UHGV virus genome: UHGV-0136979
Length of the DNA stretch: 36,223 nt
Reading direction: 5' to 3' (one strand)
DNA from: a virus
The notes under the pieces were generated by a model. That model did not search any database, was not told the DNA's origin, and worked only from the letters and a program-made list of their open reading frames with translations. Positions 648 to 28,072 of the stretch are shown here, piece after piece; position 1 is the first letter of the stretch; every line of letters starts with the position of its first letter. The position numbers and the translations under genes are program-made.

Positions 648-788
648 TTACTGCTTACACTGTAAGAACGCCGCAAACTCCGCTCCCCAGAAGCTCATCC
701 GTATTTCACACAGCGAACCGTGCAGCATCCAGATGATGAGGATTGCCGTCACGCAGAACGTGATGGCCGTAAGCGATTTTTGCGACAT
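648..788 (-). CDS. Hok/Gef-family type I toxin-like small membrane peptide (46 aa), not in the ORF track
   Basis: Own translation: MSQKSLTAITFCVTAILIIWMLHGSLCEIRMSFWGAEFAAFLQCKQ. N-terminal hydrophobic helix plus the SLCEIR and E-x-AAFL-x-CK motifs recalled from HokA/Hok/HokE. GGAG lies 8 nt upstream of the ATG at 788 inside a possible CTCC/GGAG hairpin; a perfect 9-bp-stem hairpin (617..638) follows the stop. Confidence 0.6.
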   Translation of the reverse strand: MSQKSLTAITFCVTAILIIWMLHGSLCEIRMSFWGAEFAAFLQCKQ

Positions 789-979
789 AGCGCTTGCTCC
801 TTTGTTGGAGAGGCGCTAACCTATCACTTGCTTAAGGTAGATATGTTAGGGCCTCGGTTAAACAGAAATGTTTTCCGGGGCCTTTCCACATCTGGCCTTC
901 AGGTATTCCCTCCGACCATCAGCCGAAAGGCACCCGCGCGTAATCTAACGCTTTTTTGTTACTCCGGCAATTCTGCCTG

Positions 980-1240
980 TTAATTCTGAGGTAAAGGTAA
1001 GCTCATCTGATTGTTTCCCCTGTGTGAAGCTGGTAGCTCATGCCACGGGATACCTTCTGAAGAGTGAACGCCGGAGGCGTGTTTCGATGTGAATTTATGG
1101 AAAGCTTCCAGTGTTGAGAAGCATACGCCGCATTCCAGGTTGTTACACTGATAATACTTTTGCCGGACGGTGTTTGAATCATTTTCCGGGCGACTGGTGC
1201 GGATACGGGCAGACGCGCCACAAAGCGGACAACGAAACAT
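980..1240 (-). CDS. ogr: Ogr-type zinc-finger late transcription activator
   Basis: N-terminus MFRCPLCGASARIRTSR...YYQCNNLEC is the P2 Ogr/Delta Cys4 zinc-finger signature; position at the prophage end next to D is as in P2. The 86-aa track ORF is longer than P2 Ogr (about 72 aa), so the C-terminus is less certain. Confidence 0.85.
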   Translation of the reverse strand: MFRCPLCGASARIRTSRPENDSNTVRQKYYQCNNLECGVCFSTLEAFHKFTSKHASGVHSSEGIPWHELPASHRGNNQMSLPLPQN

Positions 1241-1597
1241 AGCAACCTCCCTTAATGTGGTGCTGTCGCTATTTTAAATTGTATTCGCAAATATGCAAAC
1301 TGACCGTCAGGTCAGTTTGAGGAACGGGCGTTTAATCATTAATAAAAATGTTCTCTGATGTTATTTATTATCTTGCCATTGTCAAATGATGATCTAATGA
1401 CTAATTATAACAAAAGAGTCTGTACATTATTTATATGTTTTGATAACTAGGTGTTTTTATATATTTATAGATTTAAAATATCATATAAAAATGTGTGTTA
1501 TAAAATCATCTGGTTTGAGTGAAAGGGCAGGAGGTGGATTTTTTCTGCCCTTTAATAATATAGTGCTAATGGAAACAATATCTATATACGAGTTATT

Positions 1598-2482: not shown

Positions 2483-3592
2483 TCACTCTGTTTCTGCTAT
2501 CCATTCCGGGATTTTTGCTTCAAGCTCAAGCTGCGTGGTAAAACCGCTGTTATCAATGGTGTGCTCGGCTTTTGCAATAATCCAGTCCTGATTATCAATC
2601 TCGCTTTTAAATCCTGTTACCGTGCCATGCATTTCGGGGTAGAGTTCTGCGCGTCCGCGTGCCAGTGTGATGGAGAATGATGCGGCTCCGCGTTGTAGCT
2701 GCTGCCACTTTGCCGCCGCTGCGCGTCTTGCTGCCTGCTCGTTCTGATAAGTCTTGCGTAACACAAACACATTGCCTTCCGCACCTTCCATATAATCACC
2801 TTCACGGCTGCTGCTTTTCTCCTTTTTGGGTTTTGGCGGTTTGCGGCGTTTCACGCTGACTTTTTTCTTTTTCCCGTAATTAAGATCAAGCCAGTAAGCG
2901 CGTACCCCCGTATACGCTTCGCGGTCAGCAATGCGGAACTGATGTCGATCGCCACTGCTGCGCGTGATGGCGAACGAGGGCAACGGCTGGCCCTGCGCGT
3001 TCACGCCACCGCCTGGCATGATGAATAACAGATTACCGCTTTTTACCGTGGTGATTGCGCCCAGCATTTCCGCCATGCGCGTAAGGAAGGACATGTCGCT
3101 TTCTTCAGTCTGGTCGGCGTGGTCGATTTCGATATCCATCAGCATTTCGCTGATTTGCGGTTTCAGACCGTACCGATGAGCGATGGCGGATACCACGCGC
3201 TCAACGGTCACATCATGCCAGGACACTTCACGTTTAACGTTAAATTCATCCCGAAAATCTGCGCTTCTGGCTGAAACAGTCAGCCTGTCCGGCGGTCCTT
3301 CGTGTGCGATTTCATCAACAATGTAAGAGCCTTTTTCTGTCAGCGGTTCTCCTTTCCAGCCAATGAGAACCGTCAGGCGCGCGCCCCGTGGCGGTAGCTG
3401 CAACTGACCATCCGCATCATCCAGCGTGATGGTGAGCTGGTCCGCTTCAAATCCCCGGTTGTCGGTCAGTGACAGACTCATCAGGCGCTCTGCCACGCCG
3501 GACAGCCTTTTCCCCTCCGCGAGAATATCAAAATCCGGCATTTTCACGGGGTCTGTGCTTTGACTGAGCAATTGCATGGTGGTGTCGGTCAT
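2483..3592 (-). CDS. D: tail protein D (late control gene D family)
   Basis: 369 aa (P2 gpD is about 387 aa); lysine-rich central linker; strong RBS GGGAGGGA upstream of the ATG at 3592. Recognised by resemblance to gpD. Confidence 0.85.
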   Translation of the reverse strand: MTDTTMQLLSQSTDPVKMPDFDILAEGKRLSGVAERLMSLSLTDNRGFEADQLTITLDDADGQLQLPPRGARLTVLIGWKGEPLTEKGSYIVDEIAHEGPPDRLTVSARSADFRDEFNVKREVSWHDVTVERVVSAIAHRYGLKPQISEMLMDIEIDHADQTEESDMSFLTRMAEMLGAITTVKSGNLLFIMPGGGVNAQGQPLPSFAITRSSGDRHQFRIADREAYTGVRAYWLDLNYGKKKKVSVKRRKPPKPKKEKSSSREGDYMEGAEGNVFVLRKTYQNEQAARRAAAAKWQQLQRGAASFSITLARGRAELYPEMHGTVTGFKSEIDNQDWIIAKAEHTIDNSGFTTQLELEAKIPEWIAETE

Positions 3593-3748
3593 TCGTCCCT
3601 CCCTGTGCGGTATGGTCGCATGTGCGCACGGAGTGGGTTACTGCTTTTTGTTGTCGCCGTGGCGGGAGAACGGCGCAGGGGTGAGATTACGCGCGTGGTG
3701 GGTGATGATTGTTGCCGAATCATTTAACGGATACAAGGGGCTGAAGCT
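3593..3748. promoter_or_regulatory. divergent intergenic region between D (-) and FI (+); presumed late promoter region
   Basis: 156 bp separating two divergently oriented late genes, each with its own RBS; no clean TGT-N12-ACA Ogr box was found by eye. Confidence 0.35.
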
Positions 3749-4933
3749 ATGAGTGAAACTCGTTTTCATGGTGCCCGTGTTACGGAAAATACCGACCTGG
3801 TAACAGCGATTAACGATGTTGATTCCAGCGTTATCGGTATCGTGGCAACGGCGGATGATGCGGACGCGAAGCTGTTCCCGCTGAACAAGCCCACACTGCT
3901 GACCCGCGTCAATGACGTGCTGGGAAAATGCGGGACAACGGGGACGCTTTATCGTGCGCTTAAGGCCATCGCTGACCAGGTGAGCACAAAGGTGATCGTC
4001 GTTCGCGTGGCTGAACACAAAGAAGAAGACGGAAAGACGCAGGATCAACTGGTTATCGGTGGTTCTGAGGATGACGGCAGCTATACGGGGATGTATGCGC
4101 TGCTTGTTGCAGAGCAGGATGAAAGCATCGGATACCGTCCGCGTATTCTGGCCGCGCCGGAGCTGGACACGGAGGCGGTGACAAAATCCCTGTGCGTGAT
4201 TGCGGGTAAACTGCGCGCGTTTGTGTATGCCACATGTCATGGTTGTAACACGATGGCTGAGGCGATTACCTACCGCCAGAAATTCAACGAACGTGAGGTG
4301 ATGCTCTTATGGCCGGACTTCATCGCCTACAACCCGAAAAGTGGCAAAAACGAAACGTTCCCCGCGCCTGCCTATGCGTGCGGCCTTCGTGCGTACATTG
4401 ACCATGAGCAGGGCTGGCACAAATCACTGTCCAACGTTCCGGTTAAAAATGTGCTGGGGATGTCGAGGCATGTGTTCTGGTCGTTGCAGGCCGAAGACAG
4501 CGATGCCAACAGCCTCAACAACAAAGAAATCACGACCATTATTCGTCGCAACGGGTTCCGCTTCTGGGGCAACCGCACACCGGAAACGAACGCCTACATC
4601 TTTGAGGTGTATACCCGAACCGCACAGGTGCTGGCTGATTCAATTGCGGAAGCGCAGTTTGAAACCATCGACAGTCCACTGACGCCTGCGAACGTGAAGG
4701 ATGTTATCAGTGCCATCAGGGCAAAACTGGATTCACTGGTTACTGCCGGGAAACTGATTGGTGCGGAGTGCTGGTATGACGTGGTGGATAACGGCACCAC
4801 GAATTTACGTCAGGGACGTGTGCGTATTCGCTACAAATATACGCCTGTTCCCCCGCTGGAAGACATGGAGCTTTACCAGTCGTTTACTGATGAATTCTTT
4901 GGTCCCGCATTTGCGGTGCTGGGAGGTGCCTGA
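3749..4933 (+). CDS. FI: contractile tail sheath protein FI
   Basis: 394 aa (P2 FI is about 396 aa); N-terminal region resembles P2 FI (ADDADA..FPLNKP); immediately followed by the tube gene. Confidence 0.9.
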   Translation: MSETRFHGARVTENTDLVTAINDVDSSVIGIVATADDADAKLFPLNKPTLLTRVNDVLGKCGTTGTLYRALKAIADQVSTKVIVVRVAEHKEEDGKTQDQLVIGGSEDDGSYTGMYALLVAEQDESIGYRPRILAAPELDTEAVTKSLCVIAGKLRAFVYATCHGCNTMAEAITYRQKFNEREVMLLWPDFIAYNPKSGKNETFPAPAYACGLRAYIDHEQGWHKSLSNVPVKNVLGMSRHVFWSLQAEDSDANSLNNKEITTIIRRNGFRFWGNRTPETNAYIFEVYTRTAQVLADSIAEAQFETIDSPLTPANVKDVISAIRAKLDSLVTAGKLIGAECWYDVVDNGTTNLRQGRVRIRYKYTPVPPLEDMELYQSFTDEFFGPAFAVLGGA

Positions 4934-5445
4934 TGGCTGTACCAAAACATCTTCGCTTTTTTACGTTGTTTGTGGATGGTGAAAACGAAGTGGGTAAAGT
5001 GACATCCGTCACGCCGCCCAAACTGACGCGCAAAACCGACAGTTATCGTGGTGGTGGCATGATGGGGGCGGTAAGTATTGATCTCGGTCTGGACGACTCC
5101 GCGCTTGATGCGAGTTTTGTCATGGGGGGAGCTGTTCGTGCGCTGTTCCTTAAATATGGCGGCACGATTGACGGCACGCTGCTGCGTTTTGCGGGTGAAT
5201 ACTACACCGATGCAGAAAGCGATCTGTATGAAATCGAGATGCGCGGGCGTGTGACGGAAATTGATATGGGGGAAGCCAAACAGGGCGAAGCCACATCACA
5301 CACTTACGCTGTCAAAAACACCTACTACAAGCTGAGCGTTAACGATCGCCCGCTGTGGGAAATCGACCTGTTGAACCACATCTACCGGAAGGACGGCAAG
5401 GACATTGTGCCTGACCGTATCCGTTCCGCGCTCGGGCTTGGCTGA
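4933..5445 (+). CDS. FII: tail tube protein FII
   Basis: 170 aa (P2 FII is 172 aa); start overlaps the FI stop. Confidence 0.9.
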   Translation: MAVPKHLRFFTLFVDGENEVGKVTSVTPPKLTRKTDSYRGGGMMGAVSIDLGLDDSALDASFVMGGAVRALFLKYGGTIDGTLLRFAGEYYTDAESDLYEIEMRGRVTEIDMGEAKQGEATSHTYAVKNTYYKLSVNDRPLWEIDLLNHIYRKDGKDIVPDRIRSALGLG

Positions 5446-5500
5446 TAAGTAATATGCAGGCGGCACAGTGCGTCGCCTCTGACTGAAAAGGAGACAACTG

Positions 5501-5875
5501 ATGAAAGACATCGATACTGAAACCCGGAATAACACCGTGGCGGATGATGTGACGGCAGGTGAGGATATGGCTGTCGAACGTGGTGTAAAACTTTCCCGGC
5601 CAATTGAGCGTGGTGGCGAAAAAATCACGTATGTGGAGATCACAGGGGCTATTGAGCAGGCTGGATCCCTGCGTGGTCTGTCGCTGTCTGATGTGCTGAA
5701 TCTGAAAGCGGATACCATGTTCACGCTGTTGCCTCGCGTGACCTCGCCACGACTGGATGAAGTGATGATTAAAAAAATGTCGTCACGCGATTTTATTCAG
5801 TTGTGCGCTGCGGCTGTAAATTTTATGAGCGAGCCAGACTCTGGCGCGAAGAGCGTGCAGGAGACGGCAGCGTAA
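5501..5875 (+). CDS. E: tail assembly chaperone E (zero-frame product)
   Basis: Small ORF between tube and tape-measure genes; overlapped by a -1 frame ORF (E'), the conserved arrangement in P2-like phages. Confidence 0.7.
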   Translation: MKDIDTETRNNTVADDVTAGEDMAVERGVKLSRPIERGGEKITYVEITGAIEQAGSLRGLSLSDVLNLKADTMFTLLPRVTSPRLDEVMIKKMSSRDFIQLCAAAVNFMSEPDSGAKSVQETAA

Positions 5876-6039
5876 TCACCCTGGTGTGCTTTGAGCACAT
5901 CGAAGATCTGGTGGCGGATATTGCCGCCATTTTTAACTGGTCGCCCGCCGAAATCTTCATGATGACGCCCGGCGAAGTGGTTAGCTGGCGTGAGCGGGCG
6001 GCACTTCGCAGCGGGAATGCAGACAATGAAGACTCTTGA
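5776..6039 (+). CDS. E': E' extension of the E+E' fusion, reached by programmed -1 frameshift
   Basis: The -1 frame is open from 5773 (after TAA at 5770..5772) to the TGA at 6037..6039; an A7 run at 5771..5777 is the only slippery tract in the overlap; the E portion up to the tract is about 92 aa, matching P2 gpE (91 aa). Confidence 0.5.
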   Translation, partial: NVVTRFYSVVRCGCKFYERARLWREERAGDGSVITLVCFEHIEDLVADIAAIFNWSPAEIFMMTPGEVVSWRERAALRSGNADNEDS

Positions 6040-8833
6040 TATCCGGGTCGCTTTCAGCGCCGTTGACAGGCTGACCCGGCCTGCCGAAAACGCCCGCCGC
6101 CTGATGGGGCAGTTTGGTGACTCCATCCAGCGAACGCAGGGGGCGATCAAAAATCTCGAGCGTCAGGCGCGTTCATTTGAGCGCGCCCGCGACGCTGTCA
6201 GTAAAGCGGATGCGGGCATCGTGAAAGCACGACGCCAGCTTAACGCCCTTAATCAGTTACAACGCACGGGTACAGTGCTCAGCGAAAAACAACAAAAGCT
6301 GATGCAGCAGTTAAGCACCCGGCTTGAACGCCTGAATGAATCGCGCACACGGGAAATTCAGAAAATGCGGGAACTTGGCGGAGAACTGAAACGCCACGGC
6401 ATTTCCCTGACAGGCAGCGATAACACCATTCAGCAGGCCATCAGACGTACCGAACAGTACAACAACCAGCTTGAACGCGAACGGCAGGCGCTTGCGCGTG
6501 TAACGCGGGCGCGTGAGCGGTATTCGCGCGCGCAGGAAACAGCGGGAAAACTGAAAACAGGTGGTGCACTGGCAATTGGTGCGGCAGCGGCGGGCGGCTA
6601 TGCTGCCGGGCGTTTTTTGCAGCCTGCGATCGGGTTCGGCAAAGAGATGTCCCGCGTTCAGGCACTGACGCGAATCGACCAGAACAGCCCGCAGTTTAAG
6701 GCGCTGCGTGAGCAGGCGTTAAAACTTGGCTCTGAAACACAGTTTACTGCGAGTGATGCCGCCAGTGGGCAGAGCTTTCTGGCAATGGCTGGTTTTACTC
6801 CGCAGGCCATTCAGGCCGCATTGCCCGGTGTTCTTAATATGGCGCTGGCAGGTGGCGTCGAACTCGGCGAGACGGCTGATATAGGCTCCAATATCCTCAC
6901 ACAGTTCAACCTGACAGCCGATCAAATGGACCGGGTTGGCGATACGCTGACAGCGGCATTCACCCGGACCAATACTGATTTACGCGCGCTGGGCGAAACC
7001 ATGAAGTATACCGGTCCGGTTGCCGCAAAACTTGGTATCAGTCTTGAAGAAGCGGCAGCCATGGCCGGGATGCTTGCCAATAATGGTCTTCGCGGAAGCG
7101 ATGCTGGTACGGCCATGCGCGCAAGTCTGTCCCGCCTTGCATCACCGCCAAAAGCTGCGGCTGATGCGCTGAAAGAGCTGGGAGTGTCAGTTGCTGACGC
7201 CAGAGGCAAAATGCGCCCGATGGAGGATGTGCTGCTTGATCTCTATAAGGCGACACAAAAATACGGACAGGTGGACCAGGTTTCCTTCTTCAAGGACATC
7301 GCCGGAGAAGAGGCGTTCGTTGGTTTGCAGACGCTTGTTGCGGCGGCTGGTTCAGGAGAGCTGCAAAAACTGACCAGAGAATTGCAGGGGGCAAGGGGAG
7401 AGGCCGATCGCGTTGCAAAAGTAATGGCCGATAATCTTGATGGGGACCTGAAAAATCTCGACAGCGCATGGGAAGGTCTTCGTATTCGCATCAGTGATCT
7501 GGTTGACGGTCCGCTGCGTTCTGTCACGCAGTGGCTCACGCGGGTGCTTGAAAAAATCACCTCGCTGGCGCAGGCCCATCCGGTACTGACGCGCCAGCTA
7601 CTGATAGCAGGCGGTGCGTTGCTGGCAATGACTGCAACGATTGGCTCGTTGTCGCTGGTTATTGGGGTGCTTTACGGGAAGCTGGCCACCTTGCGTCTTG
7701 GTTTCGACATTCTTACCCGGTCAATGAATGTCATCAGGGTGTTGCCTGCGCTGTGGGGAATGGTGACGGGTTCTGTTTCTTTGCTGGGAGGCGCTATCGG
7801 GGCGCTGTTCAGTCCGGTTGGTCTTATCGTGGCTGCGCTTGCCGGAGCTGCCGTTCTTATCTGGAAATACTGGGATCCCATCAGGGTATTTTTTGCCGGG
7901 GTGTTCAGCGGGATTATGGAACGGCTGGCTCCGTTGCGCGAAACCTTTGAACGGTTTGGCCCTGTTTTTGACGCAATCGGAAGCGGGATCAGCCAGGTGT
8001 TTAACTGGTTTAAATCGCTGCTGTCACCGATGGAGTCCAGCAAGGAAACGCTGGATAAATGTACCAGTGCTGGCGAGATATTCGGTAACGTTCTTGGCGG
8101 TGCGTTACAGCTTGTTCTGACACCTGCAAAAATGCTACTGGATACGCTGGCGTGGATACTTGAAAAACTTGGCGTCCTTCCGGATGAAGCGGAAAGGGCG
8201 CGCAAGAAAATCGAAGACGCACAGCGTGCAGCCATTCTTCAGGACAAGGTTGCCTTGCTTCAGGGGGACCTGGCGAAAATCAATCCGCCGAAGCCTGTGG
8301 AAAATGGCAATGGCACCGGAGGTGATAAACCCAAAGACAACAAACCGCTCACAGACAGCAATACCGGGACGCTACGCAGACTCAGCAAAATTGCTGATAA
8401 CACAGGTAAGCTGGTTGATGAGACGAAAAAACGCATTGGCCCCGGCGATATTGTCTTTAAGAACCTGCCCCGCGCACTTGCTGTTCGTGGGGAGTGGCAG
8501 GAGCGGAAGATTGCGCATGTCAGTAAGCCTGCCCCCGCAATTAATATCACACCCGTGGTCCCGGCTCCGCTGCCTCCGGCGCTGGTCCCTGTTGTTGCGG
8601 CCAGCTCCCGCCCGGTGGCGGAGGCTATACGATCTCCAGTGGCATCAGTTCCTGTAACTTCCCGTAACCGGGAGCCTGTTGCCTCCGGATTTGGTGGTGA
8701 AATTCATGTTCATCTGCATAACGTTGTTACGCAGAATCCCCGCGAACTGGCGAAACTGGTCGGTGAAATGGTCAGGGCAGAAATGGAACGGCGCGCCCGT
8801 GCCGGGCGTGGCAGTTTTTACGATAAAGATTGA
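5990..8833 (+). CDS. T: tail tape measure protein T
   Basis: 947 aa, coiled-coil N-terminus, Gly/Ala-rich hydrophobic central segments, located after E/E'. Track start is GTG at 5990; ATG at 6017 or 6026 are alternatives. Confidence 0.9.
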   Translation: MSGRHFAAGMQTMKTLDIRVAFSAVDRLTRPAENARRLMGQFGDSIQRTQGAIKNLERQARSFERARDAVSKADAGIVKARRQLNALNQLQRTGTVLSEKQQKLMQQLSTRLERLNESRTREIQKMRELGGELKRHGISLTGSDNTIQQAIRRTEQYNNQLERERQALARVTRARERYSRAQETAGKLKTGGALAIGAAAAGGYAAGRFLQPAIGFGKEMSRVQALTRIDQNSPQFKALREQALKLGSETQFTASDAASGQSFLAMAGFTPQAIQAALPGVLNMALAGGVELGETADIGSNILTQFNLTADQMDRVGDTLTAAFTRTNTDLRALGETMKYTGPVAAKLGISLEEAAAMAGMLANNGLRGSDAGTAMRASLSRLASPPKAAADALKELGVSVADARGKMRPMEDVLLDLYKATQKYGQVDQVSFFKDIAGEEAFVGLQTLVAAAGSGELQKLTRELQGARGEADRVAKVMADNLDGDLKNLDSAWEGLRIRISDLVDGPLRSVTQWLTRVLEKITSLAQAHPVLTRQLLIAGGALLAMTATIGSLSLVIGVLYGKLATLRLGFDILTRSMNVIRVLPALWGMVTGSVSLLGGAIGALFSPVGLIVAALAGAAVLIWKYWDPIRVFFAGVFSGIMERLAPLRETFERFGPVFDAIGSGISQVFNWFKSLLSPMESSKETLDKCTSAGEIFGNVLGGALQLVLTPAKMLLDTLAWILEKLGVLPDEAERARKKIEDAQRAAILQDKVALLQGDLAKINPPKPVENGNGTGGDKPKDNKPLTDSNTGTLRRLSKIADNTGKLVDETKKRIGPGDIVFKNLPRALAVRGEWQERKIAHVSKPAPAINITPVVPAPLPPALVPVVAASSRPVAEAIRSPVASVPVTSRNREPVASGFGGEIHVHLHNVVTQNPRELAKLVGEMVRAEMERRARAGRGSFYDKD

Positions 8834-8839
8834 GGAGTC

Positions 8840-9334
8840 ATGGCCATGATGATGATCTACGGCATGTTTGTTTTTGAGCTGCGCACGCTGCCGCATCAGC
8901 AGTTACAGCAAAACAAAAGCTGGCGGCATGTGAAAAATGAACGCGTTAACCGTTCAGCAAGCTGGCAGTATATCGGTGCAGGTGATGATCGCATCGTTCT
9001 TTCTGGTGTGCTTTATCCTGAAATTACAGGTGGCGAAGTGTCGCTGTCGCTGCTGACCACGCAGGCGTATACAGGACGCCCCTGGCCTCTTATTGATGGC
9101 GTCGGGCAGATTTACGGCATGTATGTCCTGACCGAAACGAATACGACCCGTTCCGAGTTTGATCGCTACGGTAAGGCGAAAAAGATAGAATTTTCACTGA
9201 CCCTTGAACGCTGTGATGAGGATTTGCGGGAGCGCCTGCAATCCTCATCGTTCAGCGATATGCTGTCCGGCTTCAAAGATAAAGTGACATCATCCCTTAA
9301 CAGCGCGGCCAGTTCAGTTAAAGGGCTGTTCTGA
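8840..9334 (+). CDS. U: tail protein U
   Basis: 164 aa (P2 gpU is 159 aa); GAGGAG RBS; directly follows T. Confidence 0.85.
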   Translation: MAMMMIYGMFVFELRTLPHQQLQQNKSWRHVKNERVNRSASWQYIGAGDDRIVLSGVLYPEITGGEVSLSLLTTQAYTGRPWPLIDGVGQIYGMYVLTETNTTRSEFDRYGKAKKIEFSLTLERCDEDLRERLQSSSFSDMLSGFKDKVTSSLNSAASSVKGLF

Positions 9335-9341
9335 TTTAATG

Positions 9342-9381
9342 CTGGCCACTCATACCCTCATACCTGGTAATAAGTGGCCAG
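9342..9381. repeat. inverted repeat (9-bp arms CTGGCCACT / AGTGGCCAG, 22-nt spacer) just after U
   Basis: Read directly from the sequence; lies in the right-hand junction of the inverted tail block; could be a terminator-like structure. Confidence 0.5.
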
Positions 9382-9504
9382 TCTTAACACTCACCATTTG
9401 ATTGCACCAGTGTTAACGATTTGTTACTGGACATCAGACACGCTGGATAGCCAGTAGAAACATACCATTAAAATTATTACAATAATTGGTCACATGATTA
9501 TCTT

Positions 9505-10068
9505 ATGCTGAATAATAGAGATATGAATATTAATGAACTTAAAGATTGTATTCACTATGAAGTAATCGGTAGCGAGCGTCCTTTCTCCTGGCGAAAGGCA
9601 ATTGTTCGCGCAATAAAACATAGAAGAGTTCGTTATTTATTTTGGTGGCGCATAGCCAAATACCTTTTTGATAAAGGCGGATACTGTCGGAAGATTGCGG
9701 GGAAAATAGAACGTTTCATTCTTGATAAATATAATGTAACAGTCCCTTTAACTGTAAATATAGGGAAAGGCTTTGATATTTCTTATCTCAACAGTGTTGT
9801 TATCGGTCACAAAGTAACAATCGGTGAAAATTGTTCAATAAAACCAGGGGTAACTATTGGGCTGCGTGGTGATTTTAATGATATGGATATTGTTATAGGA
9901 CATAATGTGACCATTGGTTGTAATGCCACCATTCTTGGTGGCAAAGTGCGTATAGGAAACAATGTCACAATAGGTGCTCATGCATTGGTATTGCATGATA
10001 TTCCTGATGATTCAACATTCATCACTAAATTTCAGTCTGAAGTTATCTGCTCGTCCTCCCGCACATAA
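9505..10068 (+). CDS. hexapeptide-repeat (left-handed beta-helix) acyltransferase, cargo gene in the Z/fun position
   Basis: 187 aa with tandem [LIV]-G-x4 hexapeptide repeats ([22 protein letters not shown]...[33 protein letters not shown]); markedly AT-rich; 3' end overlaps G convergently by 37 nt. Confidence 0.75.
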
Positions 10069-10649
10069 CCCTGATTCATCAGCTCTGGCCATACGATATC
10101 CGGAGCTGTACTGGTGTCAATTCTACTCACTAATACTCTGTATTTTCTCCAGGAATCCAGTTGTGAATTTTCCTCGTTTGTTGCTATTTCAAGATTAACT
10201 GCATCCTGCAGAATTGCGATGTTATCTGTTGCTTCCTGGATCAACCTTGCCTTTTTCTCTTCCGCTTCCCGTATCCGAAACAGTTTTTCTGCTTCCTCAT
10301 CCTTCACCCAGGATACGCCGTCCCACTTCTGATACTCCCCTGCTGGCGACAACCAGGTGACATTCTCTGGTAGCGGTCCGGGTTCAGAAATAAACAACGC
10401 GTCCCCCGATGCCACGTCATAGACCGTTTTACCACGATGGTCTTCAACAATATTCCACGATTCATTTTCACTGTTAAAAACTGCCACAAAGCCAGCAGGA
10501 ATTTCCGGTGGGGCGATATCTGTAGAATTAGCTGGCAGCCCTGTATGAGGTGGAATATATGCGTCACCTTCACCAATAAACTCATTAGTTCCGGCCAGCA
10601 GGTTATAAATTTTTACAGTACGTGATTGTTTGCTCATTCTGAATGCCAT
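10032..10649 (-). CDS. G: tail fibre assembly protein G
   Basis: 205 aa directly after H; ATG at 10649 overlaps the H stop (TAATG). Confidence 0.8.
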
Positions 10650-13306
10650 TATGCAAGCCTCACAATATAATTAAATGCGATGTTTTTAACGGTGTTTTCC
10701 GCGTTACCAGCAGCGTTAACGGTGATGGTGTGTCCATGTGAACCAATCGCAACAGAGTGCGTATGAGCGCCAATACCAACAGTGTGTGCATGTGCCCCAG
10801 CACTTGTAGCGGTACCTGATACTGAGTGGGTATGTGCGCCAGAAGAAGGCACAGTTCCATTCCCCACCACCGTGCCACTTGATGCACCATCCAGCCAGTC
10901 GAAATTCATACCGCCACTGTTTGGTCTCCTTAATGGAACGGTATGAGTATGTGCGCCAGCACTATTTGCAGTACCAGATACATTGTGGGTATGTGCACCT
11001 GTGTTATTCGTTGATTTAGTACCGTAATCAAACGACGATGTGGTTTTCGTACCCAAATCCGTACTGGATGCGCTGGCACTGTGGGTGTGCGATTTAATGC
11101 CGTCCTGTTCCAGAGACAATACGGCCCGACCACTGGCGGGTTTGCCCTTGATTGTCCAGCCACGCATATCCGGGATCACGCCTGACGGATAAGCGACTGC
11201 AAGTTTCGGGTATGCAGATTTATCAAAAGTCTGTCCCTGCATCAGGGCGTAACCAGACGGCACAGTATCTGATGGCCACGGCAGCGGAACACCTGGCGGA
11301 AACGCTTCAATATTTGCCGAGCCGTCAAATTTTACGCCGTTAATTGTCCTTGCCGTTTTCAGCTTTGTTGCTGTAGCAGCATTGCCGGATAGTTCGCCTG
11401 AAAGACCACCGCTGAATGTCTGTTTCGCCGCCCATGTCTGAGCTTCGTCGATAATTGGCACACGTCTTGTCGTAATCGTGCGGCTTCCCGGATTTCCTGA
11501 AATGCGAACCATAAAAAAGCGGTAATTCGCTTTACTTACAGTGCTGCGCCATACATGCATTGAGCGCCCCGTACCGGAATCATCACTCGGACCAACTGCG
11601 ATGTTTATCAGGTTGCCATCAATGACGCCCCAGTCCATACCGTCGGGAATATTGGTCATGTTATCAAGCCGAACGGTTATCAGACTGCCCGGCACAAAAT
11701 CGTAGGTCTGCCAGTCCAGGCTGGTGAGTTTTGCCACTGCGCCACCGATCCCCATATTCAGGGGCAACGAAAAGGAGTTATACACTTCTCGCCATTCGGT
11801 CCATGTGCTCCCGGCGTAGACGCGCTCAAAAGTGCGCCCCTGTGTGGTTTCTGATTTCCCTGTGGTTGTGTAACGCTGCCAGACAGATACACCATCAAAA
11901 CGCCTGATTACTTCCAGTATCCCAAGCAATGTCGCCCCAGCAGCGTCCAGCATCGGACCGTTTGTCGCCTTTCCTGTAACACTGTAAATACCGGGGTCGG
12001 TTAGAACATTCAAATCACCTTCGTAATAACGGCTCTCTGACTGATGACCGACTCTTAACCACGGTTCCCACTGCGGATTTGATGCATCCCAGCTTGCCGC
12101 AAGGCAGCGAACGTACATATTCCCACGACGAGTGGTATAACGTTGCGTTCTTCCATAATTCCCGCCTTCGAGGATCTCAAGCGTCCCCTGAGCAAAGCCG
12201 CCTTCCTCTGGATAATTGCGTTCATATGAAGCTATAGCCGAGCTACTGTTACGCCATAAACCAAGATGCTCAGCGGCTCCAAGCGTATTCAGGTCTATAG
12301 TCGTACTCAAAGGGCGGGTAGCTGATTGAGTGTGACGCCATACGCCCCACGGACCATCAGTGCCATTCCACTTATTGGCGAGTTTACGCATGTATACATT
12401 GCCGTCTCTCGTGATAAAACGTTGCGTGCCTGCAAAATTGCCAGCTGCAAAAACCTCAAGCACACCGACAGCATTATCTTCCGGGAAATTTTTCTCCAGT
12501 GTTGCGTTGGTGGATGTTGCTTTAGACCAGATGCCAAGATAAGCCTTAACGGGACCAAATGTATTCAGGTCGGCATCAAGCGGCATTTCGCCATTATTTT
12601 TCATAAACGTCAGGCTGGTAACGCCAACATTGCCCAGAAAAGCGCCCTTATCTGGAATATCGTCACCGTTCTGGTCTTTCTGCAGACGTTTCTCAGCATT
12701 GTCATAGGCTGCTTTTACTGCCTTTGGCGTTGCCGCCAGCTTTTCACTGGTGCTGTTTGTTGCACTGCTTAACTGGGTAAAACCTTTTTCTGTCAGCGTG
12801 GCGTCAGGATGGCGGCGGGATTGCTCATGCTCTGCGATTTTGTCATCGACGTAATCCTGCGTCGCCATCACTGTGCTGGCATCAATACTCAGCTCAACGG
12901 ACGCCACGTTGCTGACAATAATAACCATGCGGCAGGTCTGCGCGCGCCCGGAGCCTTCAGCGAGTTCAGGTTTATAGCTTTCCGCCATGTTAGCGACCGC
13001 AATCAGTGTTCCGGCATCGTCATACAGACCCAGCTCACGCATCCAGAAGCCGCCCACTTCTGGCGGTACAACCAGTTCAGCCACGATATAGTTTTTATTC
13101 TTGTTATCCACGCTGACTTTATTCAGAGCGTGACGCCAGACCTCATGCACCAGTTTCGTCTGACCGGCATCCGGCACCGGCAATTTGCCATTACCGTCAC
13201 CCACGGCCATTGCAGACAGAGTTACTTTTTTCCCGCCGGGGACAGTGGCGGCTGCCAGCTTCGCGGCTCCGGCAGTAGTGATAACGGTTTTAAATTTCGT
13301 GCTCAT
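10649..13306 (-). CDS. H: tail fibre protein H
   Basis: 885 aa; conserved N-terminal region of P2/Mu-type fibres; C-terminal repeated GAHTH / HxH motifs typical of tail-fibre tip domains. Confidence 0.9.
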
Positions 13307-13316
13307 TGTTTCTCAC

Positions 13317-13877
13317 TTATCCGGGATAAACAGTAATAACATCACCATCACAGACCACACCGCCTGTATACAGATAGCCGGGAATGTCCTGGATAATGTT
13401 CAGGCCGATAAGGTGGCGACTTGCGGGTTTGGCATCGGCAATCAGCCGTTCCATTTCCAGATACATTTCCTCGGTCACACCACTGTCCAGCGTGCCAACA
13501 TCAACCTTGAATGTTCCGGGTTCGCCGTCGAACTCCCACCACTCAGACACACGAATGAGATATCCCAGCGGCTCAATGGCCCGGCGCAGTGCGCTGATGG
13601 TTCCCTTGTGTCGGTGTATCAGCCATGCATCACGAATCACCTGTCGCTTTGTCTCTTCCGGCCAGTTGCGATCCCAGCGGTCAACGGAAAATGCCCAGGC
13701 GAGATAAGGCAGCAGATGCACCGGGCAGGTGTCCGGCGACCACAGCGTGTTGAGGTCTACCGGAATGTCTGTAATGCGCGCTCCGACAGCTTCGGCGCAA
13801 CGCATGAAATTGCTGGCTGATGGCGGTAACAGTGAATTACTCATTACGCCCACCTTCGCTGATGGTGAATGACTCAC
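13317..13877 (-). CDS. I: baseplate/tail protein I
   Basis: 186 aa (P2 gpI is 176 aa); synteny J-I-H; overlaps J by 41 nt. Confidence 0.85.
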   Translation of the reverse strand: MSHSPSAKVGVMSNSLLPPSASNFMRCAEAVGARITDIPVDLNTLWSPDTCPVHLLPYLAWAFSVDRWDRNWPEETKRQVIRDAWLIHRHKGTISALRRAIEPLGYLIRVSEWWEFDGEPGTFKVDVGTLDSGVTEEMYLEMERLIADAKPASRHLIGLNIIQDIPGYLYTGGVVCDGDVITVYPG

Positions 13878-14733
13878 AGCGCGCCGCCTGTATGTCGCTG
13901 ATGGCCATATTCTGTGTGGGTTCGATTATCTCCACGCGTTGAACACCGTGCACATGCAATGCGGCAGCAATGGCGGACAACGCCACGTCCTGACCGATAA
14001 GCCCCTGCTCAGCCAGCCACTTCCTGAACGACGATTCAGCCGCAGCCAGAATAGGTTCGGATTCCGGGCCGGGATAAAAGTACAGTTTTGCATTCAGCCG
14101 CCATGTCACGATTCTGGCACTCTGTACGGTCAGGCGGTCGGCCACCGGGCGGGTATCCTCTGCATTCAGAACGGCACGAACGGTATTAAGCAACGCCTCC
14201 GTTGCTGTGCCGTCGCCTTCAGTGGACAGGATGGAAACCGTCACGTTGGCCGGAGACGGACTGATAGCCCGCGCATCACGCACCAGACCGCTGGCGCTGC
14301 GGGCAAAATACTCGTATGCACCTGACGGGCCAGCAACACTCAGGCCGTCGTACGCCCGCTGCGCCCGCAGTCTCAGCGAGGTGTCACTCTCCATCACCGC
14401 GTCGGTGGTATCCGTTGCCGGAGTGATGGTCAGGCGCTTTGTGTTCATATTGCCCGCGAGGTTGTCCAGGTCTGTCCCGGCGCTGTGGCTTAACATGCAG
14501 GCGCGTGCCCCCTCATTGACCCGCTGGCGTAACAGCATTTCACGAAACGCTGTTGTCTGGGCGATAACGTTCAGGGGTTCCGATTCCAGCTCCAGCGCGG
14601 CGGAGACGGCTTCACGCTGTTCGGCGGGATAAGCCGCAATCATCATGGCCTTTGTGTCAGCCAGAATTGCCTCAAAGTCAGGCTCCGCGATGATGGCGGG
14701 TTCCGGTAACTGTGAAAGGTCAACGGCGGGCAT
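13837..14733 (-). CDS. J: baseplate assembly protein J
   Basis: 298 aa (P2 gpJ is 302 aa); synteny W-J-I. Confidence 0.9.
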   Translation of the reverse strand: MPAVDLSQLPEPAIIAEPDFEAILADTKAMMIAAYPAEQREAVSAALELESEPLNVIAQTTAFREMLLRQRVNEGARACMLSHSAGTDLDNLAGNMNTKRLTITPATDTTDAVMESDTSLRLRAQRAYDGLSVAGPSGAYEYFARSASGLVRDARAISPSPANVTVSILSTEGDGTATEALLNTVRAVLNAEDTRPVADRLTVQSARIVTWRLNAKLYFYPGPESEPILAAAESSFRKWLAEQGLIGQDVALSAIAAALHVHGVQRVEIIEPTQNMAISDIQAARCESFTISEGGRNE

Positions 14734-14736
14734 GAT

Positions 14737-15087
14737 TTACTCCCTCAGCGTGATGGTTAATTCAACATTCTGCATGGTCTGCATGACAGTGCCCGACAGC
14801 GTCACCCCGGCGCGGCCTCCCGCTTTCCAGACAACGTCGATGGCATCCAGGGCAATGCGGGGTTCCCATCGTGTCAGCGCAATCACGGCAGCACTCATGC
14901 ATTGCAGACGCGTGGTGTTATTCATGGGTTCGTCAATCAAATCAGGCACAAGGCTGCCATATTCCCGTCGCATAACCCGGCTTGCCAGCGGGGTGGTCAG
15001 GATGTCCCTGACTGACTGTTTCAGGTGCTCCATATCGTTCAGGTTTCCCGTTCCGTCCGGGTTCATTCCTGTGTAGCGGGTTGTCAC
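14737..15087 (-). CDS. W: baseplate protein W (gp25-like)
   Basis: 116 aa (P2 gpW is 115 aa); synteny V-W-J. Confidence 0.85.
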   Translation of the reverse strand: MTTRYTGMNPDGTGNLNDMEHLKQSVRDILTTPLASRVMRREYGSLVPDLIDEPMNNTTRLQCMSAAVIALTRWEPRIALDAIDVVWKAGGRAGVTLSGTVMQTMQNVELTITLRE

Positions 15088-15665
15088 TGCGGGCCTCCTG
15101 TCGAATCGCTGCCACCTTTCACGCCACCGTGTTTATGCGTATGCACGGTAATGCCGTTTGAGGTGAAATTGCCGCCGCTGTGCGTGATATTGCCGCTCAT
15201 CTTTCCCCCTTTTGTGACGTCAAGCGTCGCCGTTCTCAGAAGGTTTGTGCATTCCACGACGGGCGTATCCAGTGTCACGCTGACGGATGCCTGCAGGGTG
15301 GCTGTTTTCATGCCGCTGGCGCTCAGTGCGCCTGCGTCCGCGTCGTAGCGGAACACCGCGCCATCCGGCGCGCTGACCACGATTTCTTTCAGGCTTTTGC
15401 CGGGGGCCGGACTGGCATCACTCCACAGGCTGCCAATTATCATGGCGGTTTCCGGGTTGCCGCCAATGCAGGCAATTACCACCTGTTCGCCTGGTGATGG
15501 CGGCAGCCACACATTGAAGGCTCCCGCGCGCGTGGTGTTCCAGCGCAGCCAGCCTGTTTCCAGTTCGCCGCTGCGAACGCGCACGCGCCAGGACTTCTCA
15601 TCAACTTCAGAGATGATCCCGGTGCGGATGATATTGCTCAGCAGTCGCATGAGTTCTGCGCTCAC
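15084..15665 (-). CDS. V: baseplate spike protein V
   Basis: 193 aa; position and size fit P2 gpV; 4-nt overlap with W. Confidence 0.85.
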   Translation of the reverse strand: MSAELMRLLSNIIRTGIISEVDEKSWRVRVRSGELETGWLRWNTTRAGAFNVWLPPSPGEQVVIACIGGNPETAMIIGSLWSDASPAPGKSLKEIVVSAPDGAVFRYDADAGALSASGMKTATLQASVSVTLDTPVVECTNLLRTATLDVTKGGKMSGNITHSGGNFTSNGITVHTHKHGGVKGGSDSTGGPQ

Positions 15666-16306
15666 CGTACAGCCTCCGCAATCCGGCCCAGCACCGTGTT
15701 ATAAATCAGGCGTTCATCTGCCTGACTGATGCCCAACAGCTCACGTACCGGGTAATCGGTGAAAATGCCCGGCGCAACCTGATCGCGCTCACCGAACTGA
15801 TGAACGCGTGCAATACGTGCGGCCACGCCGCTGTAACCCACCGTCACACCGGAAGCATCCGCACGGGCTTTCAGGTAGCGGGCGGTGCGCAGTTTTACGA
15901 ACATGGGGACGCGCTTTGTGCTGTCCTGGTTGATGCGCCGGGTGCGTATTTCCAGAAAGCGGTCGATGTCATCCCGGTAAAACGTGCGGATGCTGTTTTT
16001 ATCCTCATCCCACCCGGTGATGGTTCGCCCGTATTTCCCCGTGTCGTGATGCCAGTTTTTCAGCGTGCGTGCTTCGTTATTCCAGATAAAGCGAATACGC
16101 TCCTGTATCCGGGTTACGCGGCGTCTGCGTGGTGTCCATGCAGTCCCGTCCGGCGCTTTCTGTGACCGGATACGTGCCTGCTGGGCGCGACGTAAATCCT
16201 GTGCCAGCTTTCTGGCGATGTTATTGATGGCCTGCTGATTCAGGCTGTCGCGGATAGCCTCAAAGGTTTCATCCACGCGGGTGAATGCCTTATCCATCGC
16301 TTTCAC
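15662..16306 (-). CDS. virion morphogenesis / tail completion protein (S-position)
   Basis: 214 aa in the P2 gpS position between R and V; longer than P2 gpS (150 aa), so called by position and general resemblance only. Confidence 0.7.
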   Translation of the reverse strand: MKAMDKAFTRVDETFEAIRDSLNQQAINNIARKLAQDLRRAQQARIRSQKAPDGTAWTPRRRRVTRIQERIRFIWNNEARTLKNWHHDTGKYGRTITGWDEDKNSIRTFYRDDIDRFLEIRTRRINQDSTKRVPMFVKLRTARYLKARADASGVTVGYSGVAARIARVHQFGERDQVAPGIFTDYPVRELLGISQADERLIYNTVLGRIAEAVR

Positions 16307-26796: not shown

Positions 26797-27108
26797 TCAT
26801 TCAGGAAATAATGCCCGGATATTCCCTGCTATCTGACTGGTTATCTGTGCGGTTGGTACTGGCTGTGACACGGGGCGTTCTGTCCTGGTTTGTGTCACCG
26901 ATAACGCCTCATCGTCAGCCCATGCAGCCAGTCGGTAAGCCTCTGCTGGATTCATTTTCAGAAGTGCCAGCCCGGCCAGAAAAGCCACGCGTTGGCCGCT
27001 TTTGCGGGCTTCTGGTGTAAGGCTGTCCAGCCAGGCGCATGCTTCGCCTTCGTTCTTGACGGCGGCGGGCTTCAGATAGAAACTTATCCGTCTGGTTGGA
27101 GTCGTCAT
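26797..27108 (-). CDS. parR: ParR-like ribbon-helix-helix adaptor
   Basis: Start at 27108, 5 nt after the ParM stop, with AAGGAG upstream; 103 aa; RRISFYLKP...LAGLALL and C-terminal IRALFPE resemble plasmid R1 ParR as I recall it. The track ORF 26797..27243 is an upstream over-extension. Confidence 0.6.
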   Translation of the reverse strand: MTTPTRRISFYLKPAAVKNEGEACAWLDSLTPEARKSGQRVAFLAGLALLKMNPAEAYRLAAWADDEALSVTQTRTERPVSQPVPTAQITSQIAGNIRALFPE

Positions 27109-27112
27109 TGGT

Positions 27113-28072
27113 TTACTCCTTGTCCATTGCGTACAGCCCATTAACCAGAGCAAACTGTGGCACCCCGTCCGCGATGAAAGTCGCATTAACTCCGCAGGCT
27201 TCGCGGATAGCGGGTGCCACAATCTCCGCCCCGCCACCGACAACCATCACCCGCCCGTAACCCGAAAAACCCGCCAGCGCGCGGATCACGCGTTGTTTCA
27301 GTGTTTCTTCCTTTTCACGAATAACCGCCATCAGGTTGGCGTAATGCGCGTCATTGTGGATGTGCTGGCGCAGCCAGGCTTCATCATGGCGATGTTCGAT
27401 AATGGTATTGGCGATGTGGTGACTGGTGCGCATACCGTTAGTGGCCATCACCGACAGTACGGCATCGGCCATCAGAGAAACGCCTACGTGTGGATCGCAA
27501 AACACCTGGCTGATACCTGCCAGTTGCCCCTGAACCTTTGCCACATCCAGCGTGGTTCCGCCCAAATCCACAATCAGCAGGGATTCAAACGGACTCATGT
27601 CAGCCAGTGCTTTAAAGCCAGCCGGAATGGATTCAGGCATAACCCGTACGTTACGGATAGTGAATGCTTCGCCGTTCTGGTACTCCACCGGGCGCATAAC
27701 GTTCGCTTTTTTGCGGCTGATGTTAGCCATGTCCGGCTGTGCGTTTGTGTCGAAATACTCGCTCAGTGGCAGGGTGACAACCACATCCACCTCCTGTGGC
27801 GTGATGCCTGATTTGACCAGCGCGTGATGAATGGCAATGACATTCACATCGCTGTACTGGTATTGCGTGTCGGTCGTCTGGACAAAGCGATCGCTGACCG
27901 GATCAAAACCATAGCGCACGCCATCAAGCATGTAGTTCGCGGGCTGCGTACCACCGAACGGCGCAGACCATTCCGACTTGAAGCTGTTCGGGCTGATGGC
28001 GTTGCGGCGTTCGCCGTTCTCAGTCCATGCCAGCTTGATGTTGGTGGAACCGTCGTCGATACAAATTTTCAT
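27113..28072 (-). CDS. parM: ParM/StbA-family actin-like ATPase
   Basis: 319 aa; MKICIDDGSTNIKLAW (phosphate-1), LIVDLGGTTLDV (phosphate-2) and VMVVGGGAEIV (adenosine) motifs; near-collinear resemblance to plasmid R1 ParM from memory. Confidence 0.85.
   Translation of the reverse strand: MKICIDDGSTNIKLAWTENGERRNAISPNSFKSEWSAPFGGTQPANYMLDGVRYGFDPVSDRFVQTTDTQYQYSDVNVIAIHHALVKSGITPQEVDVVVTLPLSEYFDTNAQPDMANISRKKANVMRPVEYQNGEAFTIRNVRVMPESIPAGFKALADMSPFESLLIVDLGGTTLDVAKVQGQLAGISQVFCDPHVGVSLMADAVLSVMATNGMRTSHHIANTIIEHRHDEAWLRQHIHNDAHYANLMAVIREKEETLKQRVIRALAGFSGYGRVMVVGGGAEIVAPAIREACGVNATFIADGVPQFALVNGLYAMDKE

Follow-up and report, generated by a model that had tools for sequence, protein, structure and literature searches.

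The virus genome UHGV-0136979, analysed here as a window of 36,223 nucleotides, belongs to an E. coli-type, P88-like prophage in the genus Xuanwuvirus (family Peduoviridae). Beside its tail-fibre genes it carries an accessory gene for a small protein with a predicted left-handed beta-helix (LbH) acyltransferase fold (9505-10068, + strand). We find that this LbH gene, the tail-fibre assembly gene tfa and the receptor-binding tip of the fibre gene H move as one block across three phage backbones. The LbH protein is under strong purifying selection, and hence functional, and the catalytic residues known from its relative CysE are replaced in it by others that are themselves largely conserved. Our preferred reading, to which we give a probability of roughly 40%, is that the protein would be a lysogenic-conversion transferase acting on a precursor of an envelope glycan, a role proposed by analogy with polysaccharide-type enzymes of similar build.

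The LbH gene travels with tfa and a fibre tip

In the window the LbH gene faces tfa (10032-10649, - strand; Caudo_TAP, E = 1.6e-39), the equivalent of gpG, and the two convergent genes overlap by 37 bp. Adjoining tfa is the C-terminal, receptor-binding tip of fibre protein H (10649-11308, - strand), ~219 aa of the lambda Stf type with 68-70% identity to the C-terminus of lambda Stf. Homology of the window tfa to other tfa alleles stops at position 10085, and the last ~17 codons of tfa thus lie in DNA derived from the cargo.

A 734-nt query was present in 184 of 5,426 complete E. coli genomes (about 3%), at 159 chromosomal and 59 plasmid places, and in 58 PLSDB plasmids. Two kinds of plasmid carry the block on backbones of their own. 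The 47-kb RepA phage-plasmids, together with the phage record vB_EcoM-613R2, share window positions 9244-12766 at 94% identity; their copy also contains the last 29 codons of the tail gene gpU, a trace of its origin in a Xuanwuvirus-like phage. In the IncY P1-like plasmids the shared stretch is 9435-11281 at 94.8%, comprising the LbH gene, tfa and the last ~210 residues of the fibre. The tfa gene is 98% identical in both plasmid types. Among prophages of the window's own kind, two IMG/VR loci (L048, L075) share with the window only the LbH gene, tfa and tip, while the fibre shaft differs, and all seven IMG/VR loci having the window tfa allele carry LbH sequence. Co-occurrence in E. coli is given as approximate record counts only: 186 records match the LbH gene, 212 cover at least 80% of a 1,759-nt query spanning LbH, tfa and tip, and about 169 match a tfa plus tip query at 95% identity or above.

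No invertase gene, cin or pin, was detected beside the LbH gene in the P1-like plasmid pET6.1-IncY (L004). Where P1 has cin, this plasmid has ~1 kb of GC-rich, apparently non-coding DNA 5' of the LbH gene (~6065-7000), which, judged by eye, might be a fragment of a group II intron.

Predicted fold and family of the LbH protein

The Pfam model Hexapep (PF00132) matches the LbH protein with E = 1.1e-12 (47.5 bits, cut-off 27). An AlphaFold2 monomer model made with 85 homologues has a mean predicted local distance difference test score (pLDDT) of 91.7 and a predicted template modelling score (pTM) of 0.83, and has four helices at the N-terminal end (residues 3-69) and then a beta-helix. Foldseek returned 91 PDB matches at E <= 1e-3; the best 50 of the 91 are all LbH serine acetyltransferases (template modelling score, TM, 0.62-0.76), the top ones with TM 0.70-0.76 over the query. 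By sequence, too, the best-matching solved structures are serine acetyltransferases (CysE, E = 6e-12). From the model we confidently assign the protein a CysE-type left-handed beta-helix fold; the initial annotation had proposed a left-handed beta-helix acyltransferase from the sequence. Enzymes of this fold are acyl-CoA-dependent trimers.

Placement within the fold is less close. The best NCBIfam model is EpsC (80.7 bits, cut-off 150), followed by CysE TIGR01172 with 70.5 bits, a third of its cut-off of 210.65, and by two WcaB models (62.2 bits, cut-off 196; 59.8 bits, cut-off 194.65); the CysE model PRK11132 gives 44.2 bits against 397. The ranking EpsC, CysE, WcaB suggests a short, polysaccharide-type branch. 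At ~25-27% identity to CysE and WcaB, and with NCBIfam scores that fall well short of the cut-offs, the protein is no ortholog of a housekeeping acetyltransferase. In PHROGs it matches phrog_2154 over its full length (E = 4e-79; query residues 5-186 on profile positions 2-184 of 185), a phage protein family annotated there as of unknown function.

We take WcaB (colanic acid) and EpsC as the favoured functional analogy: they are of similar size (160-190 aa) and share the architecture. They differ in setting, lying in polysaccharide gene clusters whereas the window gene has gpU and tfa as neighbours, and WcaB keeps the His of its 'IHHG' motif and a Glu partner, neither of which the window protein has.

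A different substrate class has to be considered at this point, namely that the protein acylates a small molecule, inactivating an antibiotic or toxin or adjusting metabolism, with no link to receptors. Models of the Vat, CatB, LacA and Maa type do match, weakly (E = 1e-5 to 1e-7), and most species-level relatives stand as single genes in diverse chromosomal surroundings. These matches, however, are limited to generic C-terminal coils (residues ~127-170) and fall more than 10-fold under the cut-offs, the N-terminal helical domain and fold are CysE-type and not Vat- or LacA-type, and the pairing with tfa would be left unexplained. We regard small-molecule acylation as very unlikely.

A replaced and conserved active site

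Ungapped, well-anchored alignments to CysE (EC 2.3.1.30; PDB 1T3D, 6WYE, 7RA4) place Tyr88 of the window protein at the general base His158 and Thr73 at its partner Asp143. Asp157, which binds serine, is a Ser, and Arg192-His193, which bind the serine carboxylate, are Met121-Asp122. Likewise, the WcaB motif 'IHHG' aligns with 'ISYL'. Apart from the shared layout, in which an N-terminal helical domain precedes the left-handed beta-helix, the window protein also differs from CysE in the length of the helical domain (~70 aa versus ~140) and in having no C-terminal CysK-binding tail.

The replacement marks a clade. In the close clade (53-100% identity) the base position is Tyr in 8/8 members and the partner position is Lys, Thr or Val; in the next clade (39-49% identity) the base is His in 5/5 and the partner Asp or Glu in 5/5; among distant homologues the base is His in 69/72 and the partner Asp in 43/72. 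All of the ~60 species-level relatives in GTDB genomes have Asp or Glu together with His. Within the Tyr clade Tyr88 is found in 8/8, and Met121, Asp122 and Pro108 each in 7/8. The other histidines of the window protein (H96, H127, H153, H158) are either unconserved across the Tyr clade or common to the His-type relatives.

Two close pairs allow rates to be estimated, dS being saturated for pairs below ~75% amino-acid identity. Against the allele of the 47-kb plasmid dN is 0.002 and dS 0.115 (ratio 0.021), and against that of the P1-like plasmid dN is 0.022 and dS 0.296 (ratio 0.073). Because the replacement residues are conserved and purifying selection is strong, the site looks rebuilt and constrained rather than part of a decaying gene.

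These residues bear directly on the name under which the protein is deposited. As a genuine serine O-acetyltransferase it would boost cysteine synthesis, as the GenBank and RefSeq annotation implies and as the best PDB sequence and fold matches, all CysE, might suggest. The serine-binding and general-base residues are replaced, however, which contradicts the name; the TIGR01172 score, the short N-terminal domain and the missing CysK-binding tail argue the same way. The name 'serine acetyltransferase' is probably wrong for this protein, and we consider an authentic serine O-acetyltransferase activity almost certainly not its role.

The catalytic His was described in 2011 as common to all crystallised LbH transferases (PMC3046976). 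Its loss in the Tyr clade, together with that of the Asp partner, makes the initial annotation's assumption of a soluble acetyltransferase acting on sugars or small molecules less safe where O-acetylation is meant. LbH N-acetyltransferases and N-acyltransferases described later, QdtC and WlbB among them, have no catalytic base.

The same replacements could instead point to a catalytically dead pseudo-enzyme that has kept the LbH trimer and ligand groove and acts by binding, for example through sequestration of a nucleotide-sugar or acyl-CoA or through mixed, inactive trimers with an LbH enzyme of the host. The catalytic pair was lost jointly (His to Tyr, Asp/Glu to Thr, Lys or Val), the partner position is unconserved, and the protein is nonetheless under strong purifying selection. 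The conservation of Tyr88, Met121 and Asp122, on the other hand, resembles a rebuilt site, and QdtC and WlbB are active in the absence of a base. A pseudo-enzyme is in our estimate quite unlikely.

The slot 3' of gpU is hypervariable in sister prophages

We surveyed the slot in 80 IMG/VR loci with 99-100% identical gpU and found at least five states of occupancy. It is empty, with tfa directly after gpU, in L020, L030 and L079. The commonest state among loci long enough to show it is a Pin/Cin-type invertase (Pfam Resolvase, 1.5e-51) with one to several alternative fibre-tip/tfa cassettes; in the type phage P88, too, a DNA invertase occupies the slot together with an alternative fibre cassette. 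One locus (L082) has a methyltransferase dependent on S-adenosylmethionine within the invertase region. The LbH gene occupies the slot in 6/80 loci (L022, L048, L049, L053, L058, L075), which agrees with the initial annotation's view of it as accessory cargo in a variable slot by the tail-fibre genes. Where sister prophages have a different cargo, homology to the window stops at ~9339-9371.

In many sister prophages (L019, L024, L028, L040, L063, L064; ~6500-11000) the invertase is followed by up to four or five fibre-tip/tfa cassettes in both orientations, a shufflon-like multi-tip region bigger than that of P88.

A further occupant is a gene for a 402-aa protein with a GC content of 0.33 in locus L007 (6592-7800, - strand), adjoining a tfa allele 77-80% identical; the 1.4-kb spacing and the tfa allele recur in five more loci (L015, L050, L052, L056, L081). 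The only family matches of the protein are to lipopolysaccharide (LPS) heptosyltransferases (PF01075, 3.9e-6; TIGR02193 and RfaQ, ~1e-4; GT9), which makes it a second candidate envelope-modifying cargo.

The survey also bears on the idea that the LbH protein serves the fibre itself, by acylating the phage's own fibre or its Tfa chaperone in the manner of a virion protein modification, or by aiding fibre assembly. It lies close beside tfa again and again, in several phage types, at gaps of -37 to +43 bp. Yet tfa alleles 60-80% identical stand in L020, L030 and L007, from which the LbH gene is entirely absent, and in locus L039 a 341-bp internal deletion (L039 6777/6773, corresponding to window 9617-9957) inactivates the LbH gene, with tfa and H still 99% identical to the window. 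Moreover, the LbH gene always lies on the strand opposite the late fibre operon, and the closest enzymes, CysE, WcaB and EpsC, act on small molecules or sugars and not on proteins. We hold a role in fibre or Tfa modification to be highly improbable.

Pairing with tfa among more distant relatives

Relatives of the LbH protein at 37-53% identity are also convergent with tfa and a fibre gene, at gaps of 3-43 bp. They include those of Hafnia phage yong2 (53% identity, of the Thr/Tyr type), Citrobacter phage phiNP (40%), and the Punaviruses Ro157c2YLVW (38%) and JL22, whose 'sacF' is 37% identical. A relative in a Salmonella prophage (L131) is likewise convergent with tfa, as is a distant one in a Buttiauxella P2-like prophage (L125), where it sits in the true slot between G and FI, and at a second Salmonella locus (L100) a tfa-like open reading frame (ORF) lies just downstream of the LbH relative. 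To judge from these sequences, the pairing of LbH and tfa is older than the window allele.

JL22 is a P1-like phage-plasmid, and its SacF belongs to the same family, in the same convergent arrangement with tfa-stf; it differs in keeping the canonical Glu/His pair and in lying inside a cin-controlled invertible region. The authors who described JL22 noted sacF and stated that its role is unknown (PMC9603915).

The contigs of the 68-75% identical homologues P0007-P0009 span just 0.9-2.1 kb, and no tfa is detectable on them; one of these homologues adjoins a UDG gene and a gene that, by its look, we take to encode an IS3-family transposase. Not all relatives show the pairing. The surroundings of two other homologues (P0014 and P0022) are not phage-like. 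A Pfam scan of 125 neighbours of ~55 species-level relatives gave 146 families, none dominant, with Caudo_TAP found only twice, and a few distant relatives adjoin GT2, GT17 or UDP-glucose dehydrogenase genes. With so many neighbour families and no dominant partner, we dropped the notion of an LbH family strictly bound to phages or polysaccharide clusters.

Open reading frame, composition and flanking signals

The LbH gene is an intact ORF of 187 aa, as initially annotated, although its true start is probably the second ATG, at 9523, which gives 181 aa. The Prokaryotic Genome Annotation Pipeline places the start of a 100%-identical E. coli copy at this ATG, and homologues start at the Met of window 9523 in the alignments; residue numbers of the LbH protein are therefore counted from 9523 (181-aa form).

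With a GC content of 0.374 (0.29 at third codon positions, GC3) against 0.523 for the window, the gene forms one of the window's two lowest-GC islands (z = -2.7; within the lowest 2% of 546-bp windows). The initial annotation had spoken of an AT-skewed composition and of recent acquisition; AT-rich the gene is, while its A-versus-T skew is ~0. Low GC is typical of the whole LbH protein family at any site (0.32-0.48 in nine loci), and tfa-adjacent members have 0.32-0.41 against roughly 0.43-0.57 for the downstream flank. As a family-wide trait, low GC alone is weak evidence of recent acquisition. Better evidence comes from the roughly 94-100% identical copies across three unrelated phage backbones.

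Between gpU and the probable LbH start lies an intergenic segment (9335-9522). A hairpin at 9341-9382 (+ strand) begins 7 nt past the gpU stop codon, where the cargo block has its left edge; the RNA fold of 9330-9400 has -22.5 kcal/mol (z = -5.46), and 0/200 shuffles were as stable. The hairpin belongs to the cargo segment, being present also in the module copy of L039, and is a candidate terminator or insulator with no T-run after it. The 8-mer CTCATACC occurs twice in its loop (two copies by Tandem Repeats Finder, TRF). A sigma-70-like promoter candidate, TAGAAA-17-TACAAT (9455-9483, + strand; 9/12 consensus matches), lies ~40 nt 5' of the ATG at 9523, in a scan that is weak in that it yielded 6 sites in the region against 3.5 +/- 1.7 expected.

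Genome context

The window is 93-96% identical to phages 500465-2, P884B11 and P88 over 2483-9334. Its gene order runs ogr(-), alpha/beta hydrolase(-), gpD(-), FI-FII-E-T-U(+), LbH(+), tfa(-), H(-), I, J, W, V(-) and onward, while that of P2 is G(+), a terminator, fun(Z)(-), then FI through U, D and ogr, all (+). The FI-FII-E-T-U operon (3749-9334) is thus inverted with respect to P2, relative to 2483-3592 and 10032-16306, with the consequence that gpD and ogr are separated from gpU, and FI and gpD are divergent. The inverted tail operon ends with gpU (8840-9334, + strand; Pfam Phage_P2_GpU, 5.5e-39), which forms the left limit of the variable slot. The inversion is present in P88 and in every one of the 80 IMG/VR loci long enough to show orientation, and it is therefore a trait of the genus and no local event. 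A search for inverted repeats that could explain it gave only short, chance-like matches, none at the block ends.

It follows from the inversion that the other flank of the LbH gene is gpU and not FI. The gene had initially been placed between the tail-fibre genes and the sheath block, in the Z/fun hotspot. The first placement does not hold, as the neighbours are gpU and tfa; the second holds on one side, where the gene faces tfa as fun(Z) faces G in P2. Like fun(Z), it directly adjoins the fibre-assembly gene on its distal side, in convergent orientation and on the strand opposite the late fibre operon, and both are non-essential, AT-rich and variable between relatives. Fun(Z) differs in its length of 528 aa, in its other flank and in having no evident relationship to the LbH protein.

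A second AT-rich cargo gene (1598-2356, - strand; GC 0.41, GC3 0.27) lies between gpD and ogr. Its 252-aa product is an alpha/beta-fold hydrolase (Abhydrolase_1, 4e-21; esterase/lipase in PHROG); the gene is rare, found in 6/5,426 complete E. coli genomes at 88-89% identity, and is missing from NZ_CP148378, a genome that does carry the LbH gene. At the left end of the prophage, correspondence to the NZ_CP148378 and P88 annotation and reading of the sequence place a hok/gef-family toxin ORF at ~655-789 (- strand) and an ogr/Delta zinc-finger gene at ~990-1247 (- strand). Between the replication gene A and the portal gene, at the P2 old/tin accessory position, lies a plasmid partition pair of the ParM/StbB type (26797-28072, - strand; StbA_N, 3e-81; Plasmid_stab_B, 4e-24). 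NZ_CP148288, a 34,461-bp record deposited as a plasmid, has a 100% identical LbH region. The phage may also persist as an episome.

A possible role in lysogenic conversion

In the mechanism we propose, the LbH gene would be a prophage accessory ('moron') gene expressed in the lysogen from its own promoter. Its product would be a soluble, cytoplasmic enzyme of the CysE-type fold, presumably using acyl-CoA, and its acceptor would most likely be a sugar or amino-sugar in an intermediate of an envelope glycan, assembled at the cytoplasmic side of the inner membrane; the LPS core, the O-unit, enterobacterial common antigen (ECA) and colanic acid are candidates. Modification of the acceptor would change the surface structure on which Stf/Tfa-class fibres rely, so that the lysogen would be shielded from superinfection and the virions it releases would fail to re-adsorb.

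This reading draws on four lines of argument: the nearest functional neighbours WcaB and EpsC, the heptosyltransferase-like gene in the sister slot, the precedent of NeuO and the receptors of this class of fibre. P1, Mu and P2 fibres use the LPS core, and lambda Stf and T4 gp37 use OmpC or LPS. Also in favour are the purifying selection on the protein, the physical linkage to the receptor-binding tip and the age of the association with tfa, and, for expression in the lysogen, the orientation against the late fibre operon and the promoter-like site upstream. NeuO, the polysialic acid O-acetyltransferase of prophage CUS-3 (PMC3046976), is an LbH acetyltransferase that a prophage encodes and that modifies a surface glycan, which makes it a precedent for the proposed role. 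It belongs to another LbH branch, however, and does not occur among the 53 PDB sequences with a match at E <= 1e-3; it uses His119 and Trp143, and its host phage is P22-like. NeuO is also phase-variable through a 5' heptanucleotide variable-number tandem repeat (VNTR), whereas TRF found no tandem repeat in or before the LbH gene other than the 8-mer pair in the hairpin.

Several observations weigh against a role in lysogenic conversion. About 50 of the 60 species-level relatives stand in heterogeneous, non-phage neighbourhoods, and the LbH family is for this reason not exclusively linked to fibres. Since the canonical general base is gone throughout the Tyr clade (His to Tyr in 8/8), O-acetylation by the textbook mechanism is doubtful. 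The internal deletion in L039 indicates that the gene is dispensable. The 37-bp overlap with tfa could by itself explain co-inheritance in E. coli. Lastly, genes for intracellular defence are known from the fun(Z) position of P2-like phages (PMC9519451).

The last point leads to the alternative of intracellular anti-phage or inter-element competition, in which the protein would acylate a phage or host protein, a nucleotide or a metabolite after infection and leave adsorption unchanged. The slot beside G is where P2 has fun(Z), which blocks T5; slot occupancy changes fast, and many hotspot genes of unknown function prove defensive (bioRxiv 10.64898/2026.02.27.708500). A comparison with the PADLOC-DB v2 defence models, on the other side, matched no family at E <= 0.1. 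We know of no defence system based on a lone CysE-fold LbH protein. The Xuanwuvirus slot, moreover, mostly holds fibre-switching genes and not defence genes, and the recurrent pairing with tfa across backbones favours receptor biology over generic defence. We therefore think a defence function unlikely and continue to prefer modification of an envelope glycan.

The envelope-glycan reading can be taken further. In this extended form phrog_2154 would be a dedicated partner of Stf/Tfa-type fibre modules in temperate phages of enterobacteria, a cytoplasmic LbH transferase that masks the receptor glycan of the fibre class it accompanies, most plausibly the LPS core. The clade with Tyr88 and Asp122 would have turned to a histidine-independent chemistry, for example amino-sugar N-acylation or a Tyr/Asp-assisted reaction, with a new acceptor specificity, and tip, chaperone and enzyme would form an exchangeable host-range and exclusion cassette of P2-like, P1-like and other phages. 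We offer this as a tentative proposal that is unlikely to hold in full.

The gene itself is already annotated in hundreds of records, and we found one passing mention of it in the literature. The literature found does not describe the clade with the His-to-Tyr replacement, the unit of LbH, tfa and tip common to P2-like, RepA-plasmid and P1-like elements, or the family-wide recurrence beside tfa. Hundreds of database entries name the protein 'serine acetyltransferase', where the residues argue otherwise. A conserved His-to-Tyr replacement in a CysE-fold enzyme under purifying selection offers a clean test case for non-canonical LbH catalysis. If receptor masking proves true, the whole block would amount to a self-contained cassette of the 'infect and then lock the door' kind, mobile among P2-like prophages, P1-like phage-plasmids and further elements, with a bearing on the prediction of phage host range, on resistance in phage therapy and on LPS or serotype variation.

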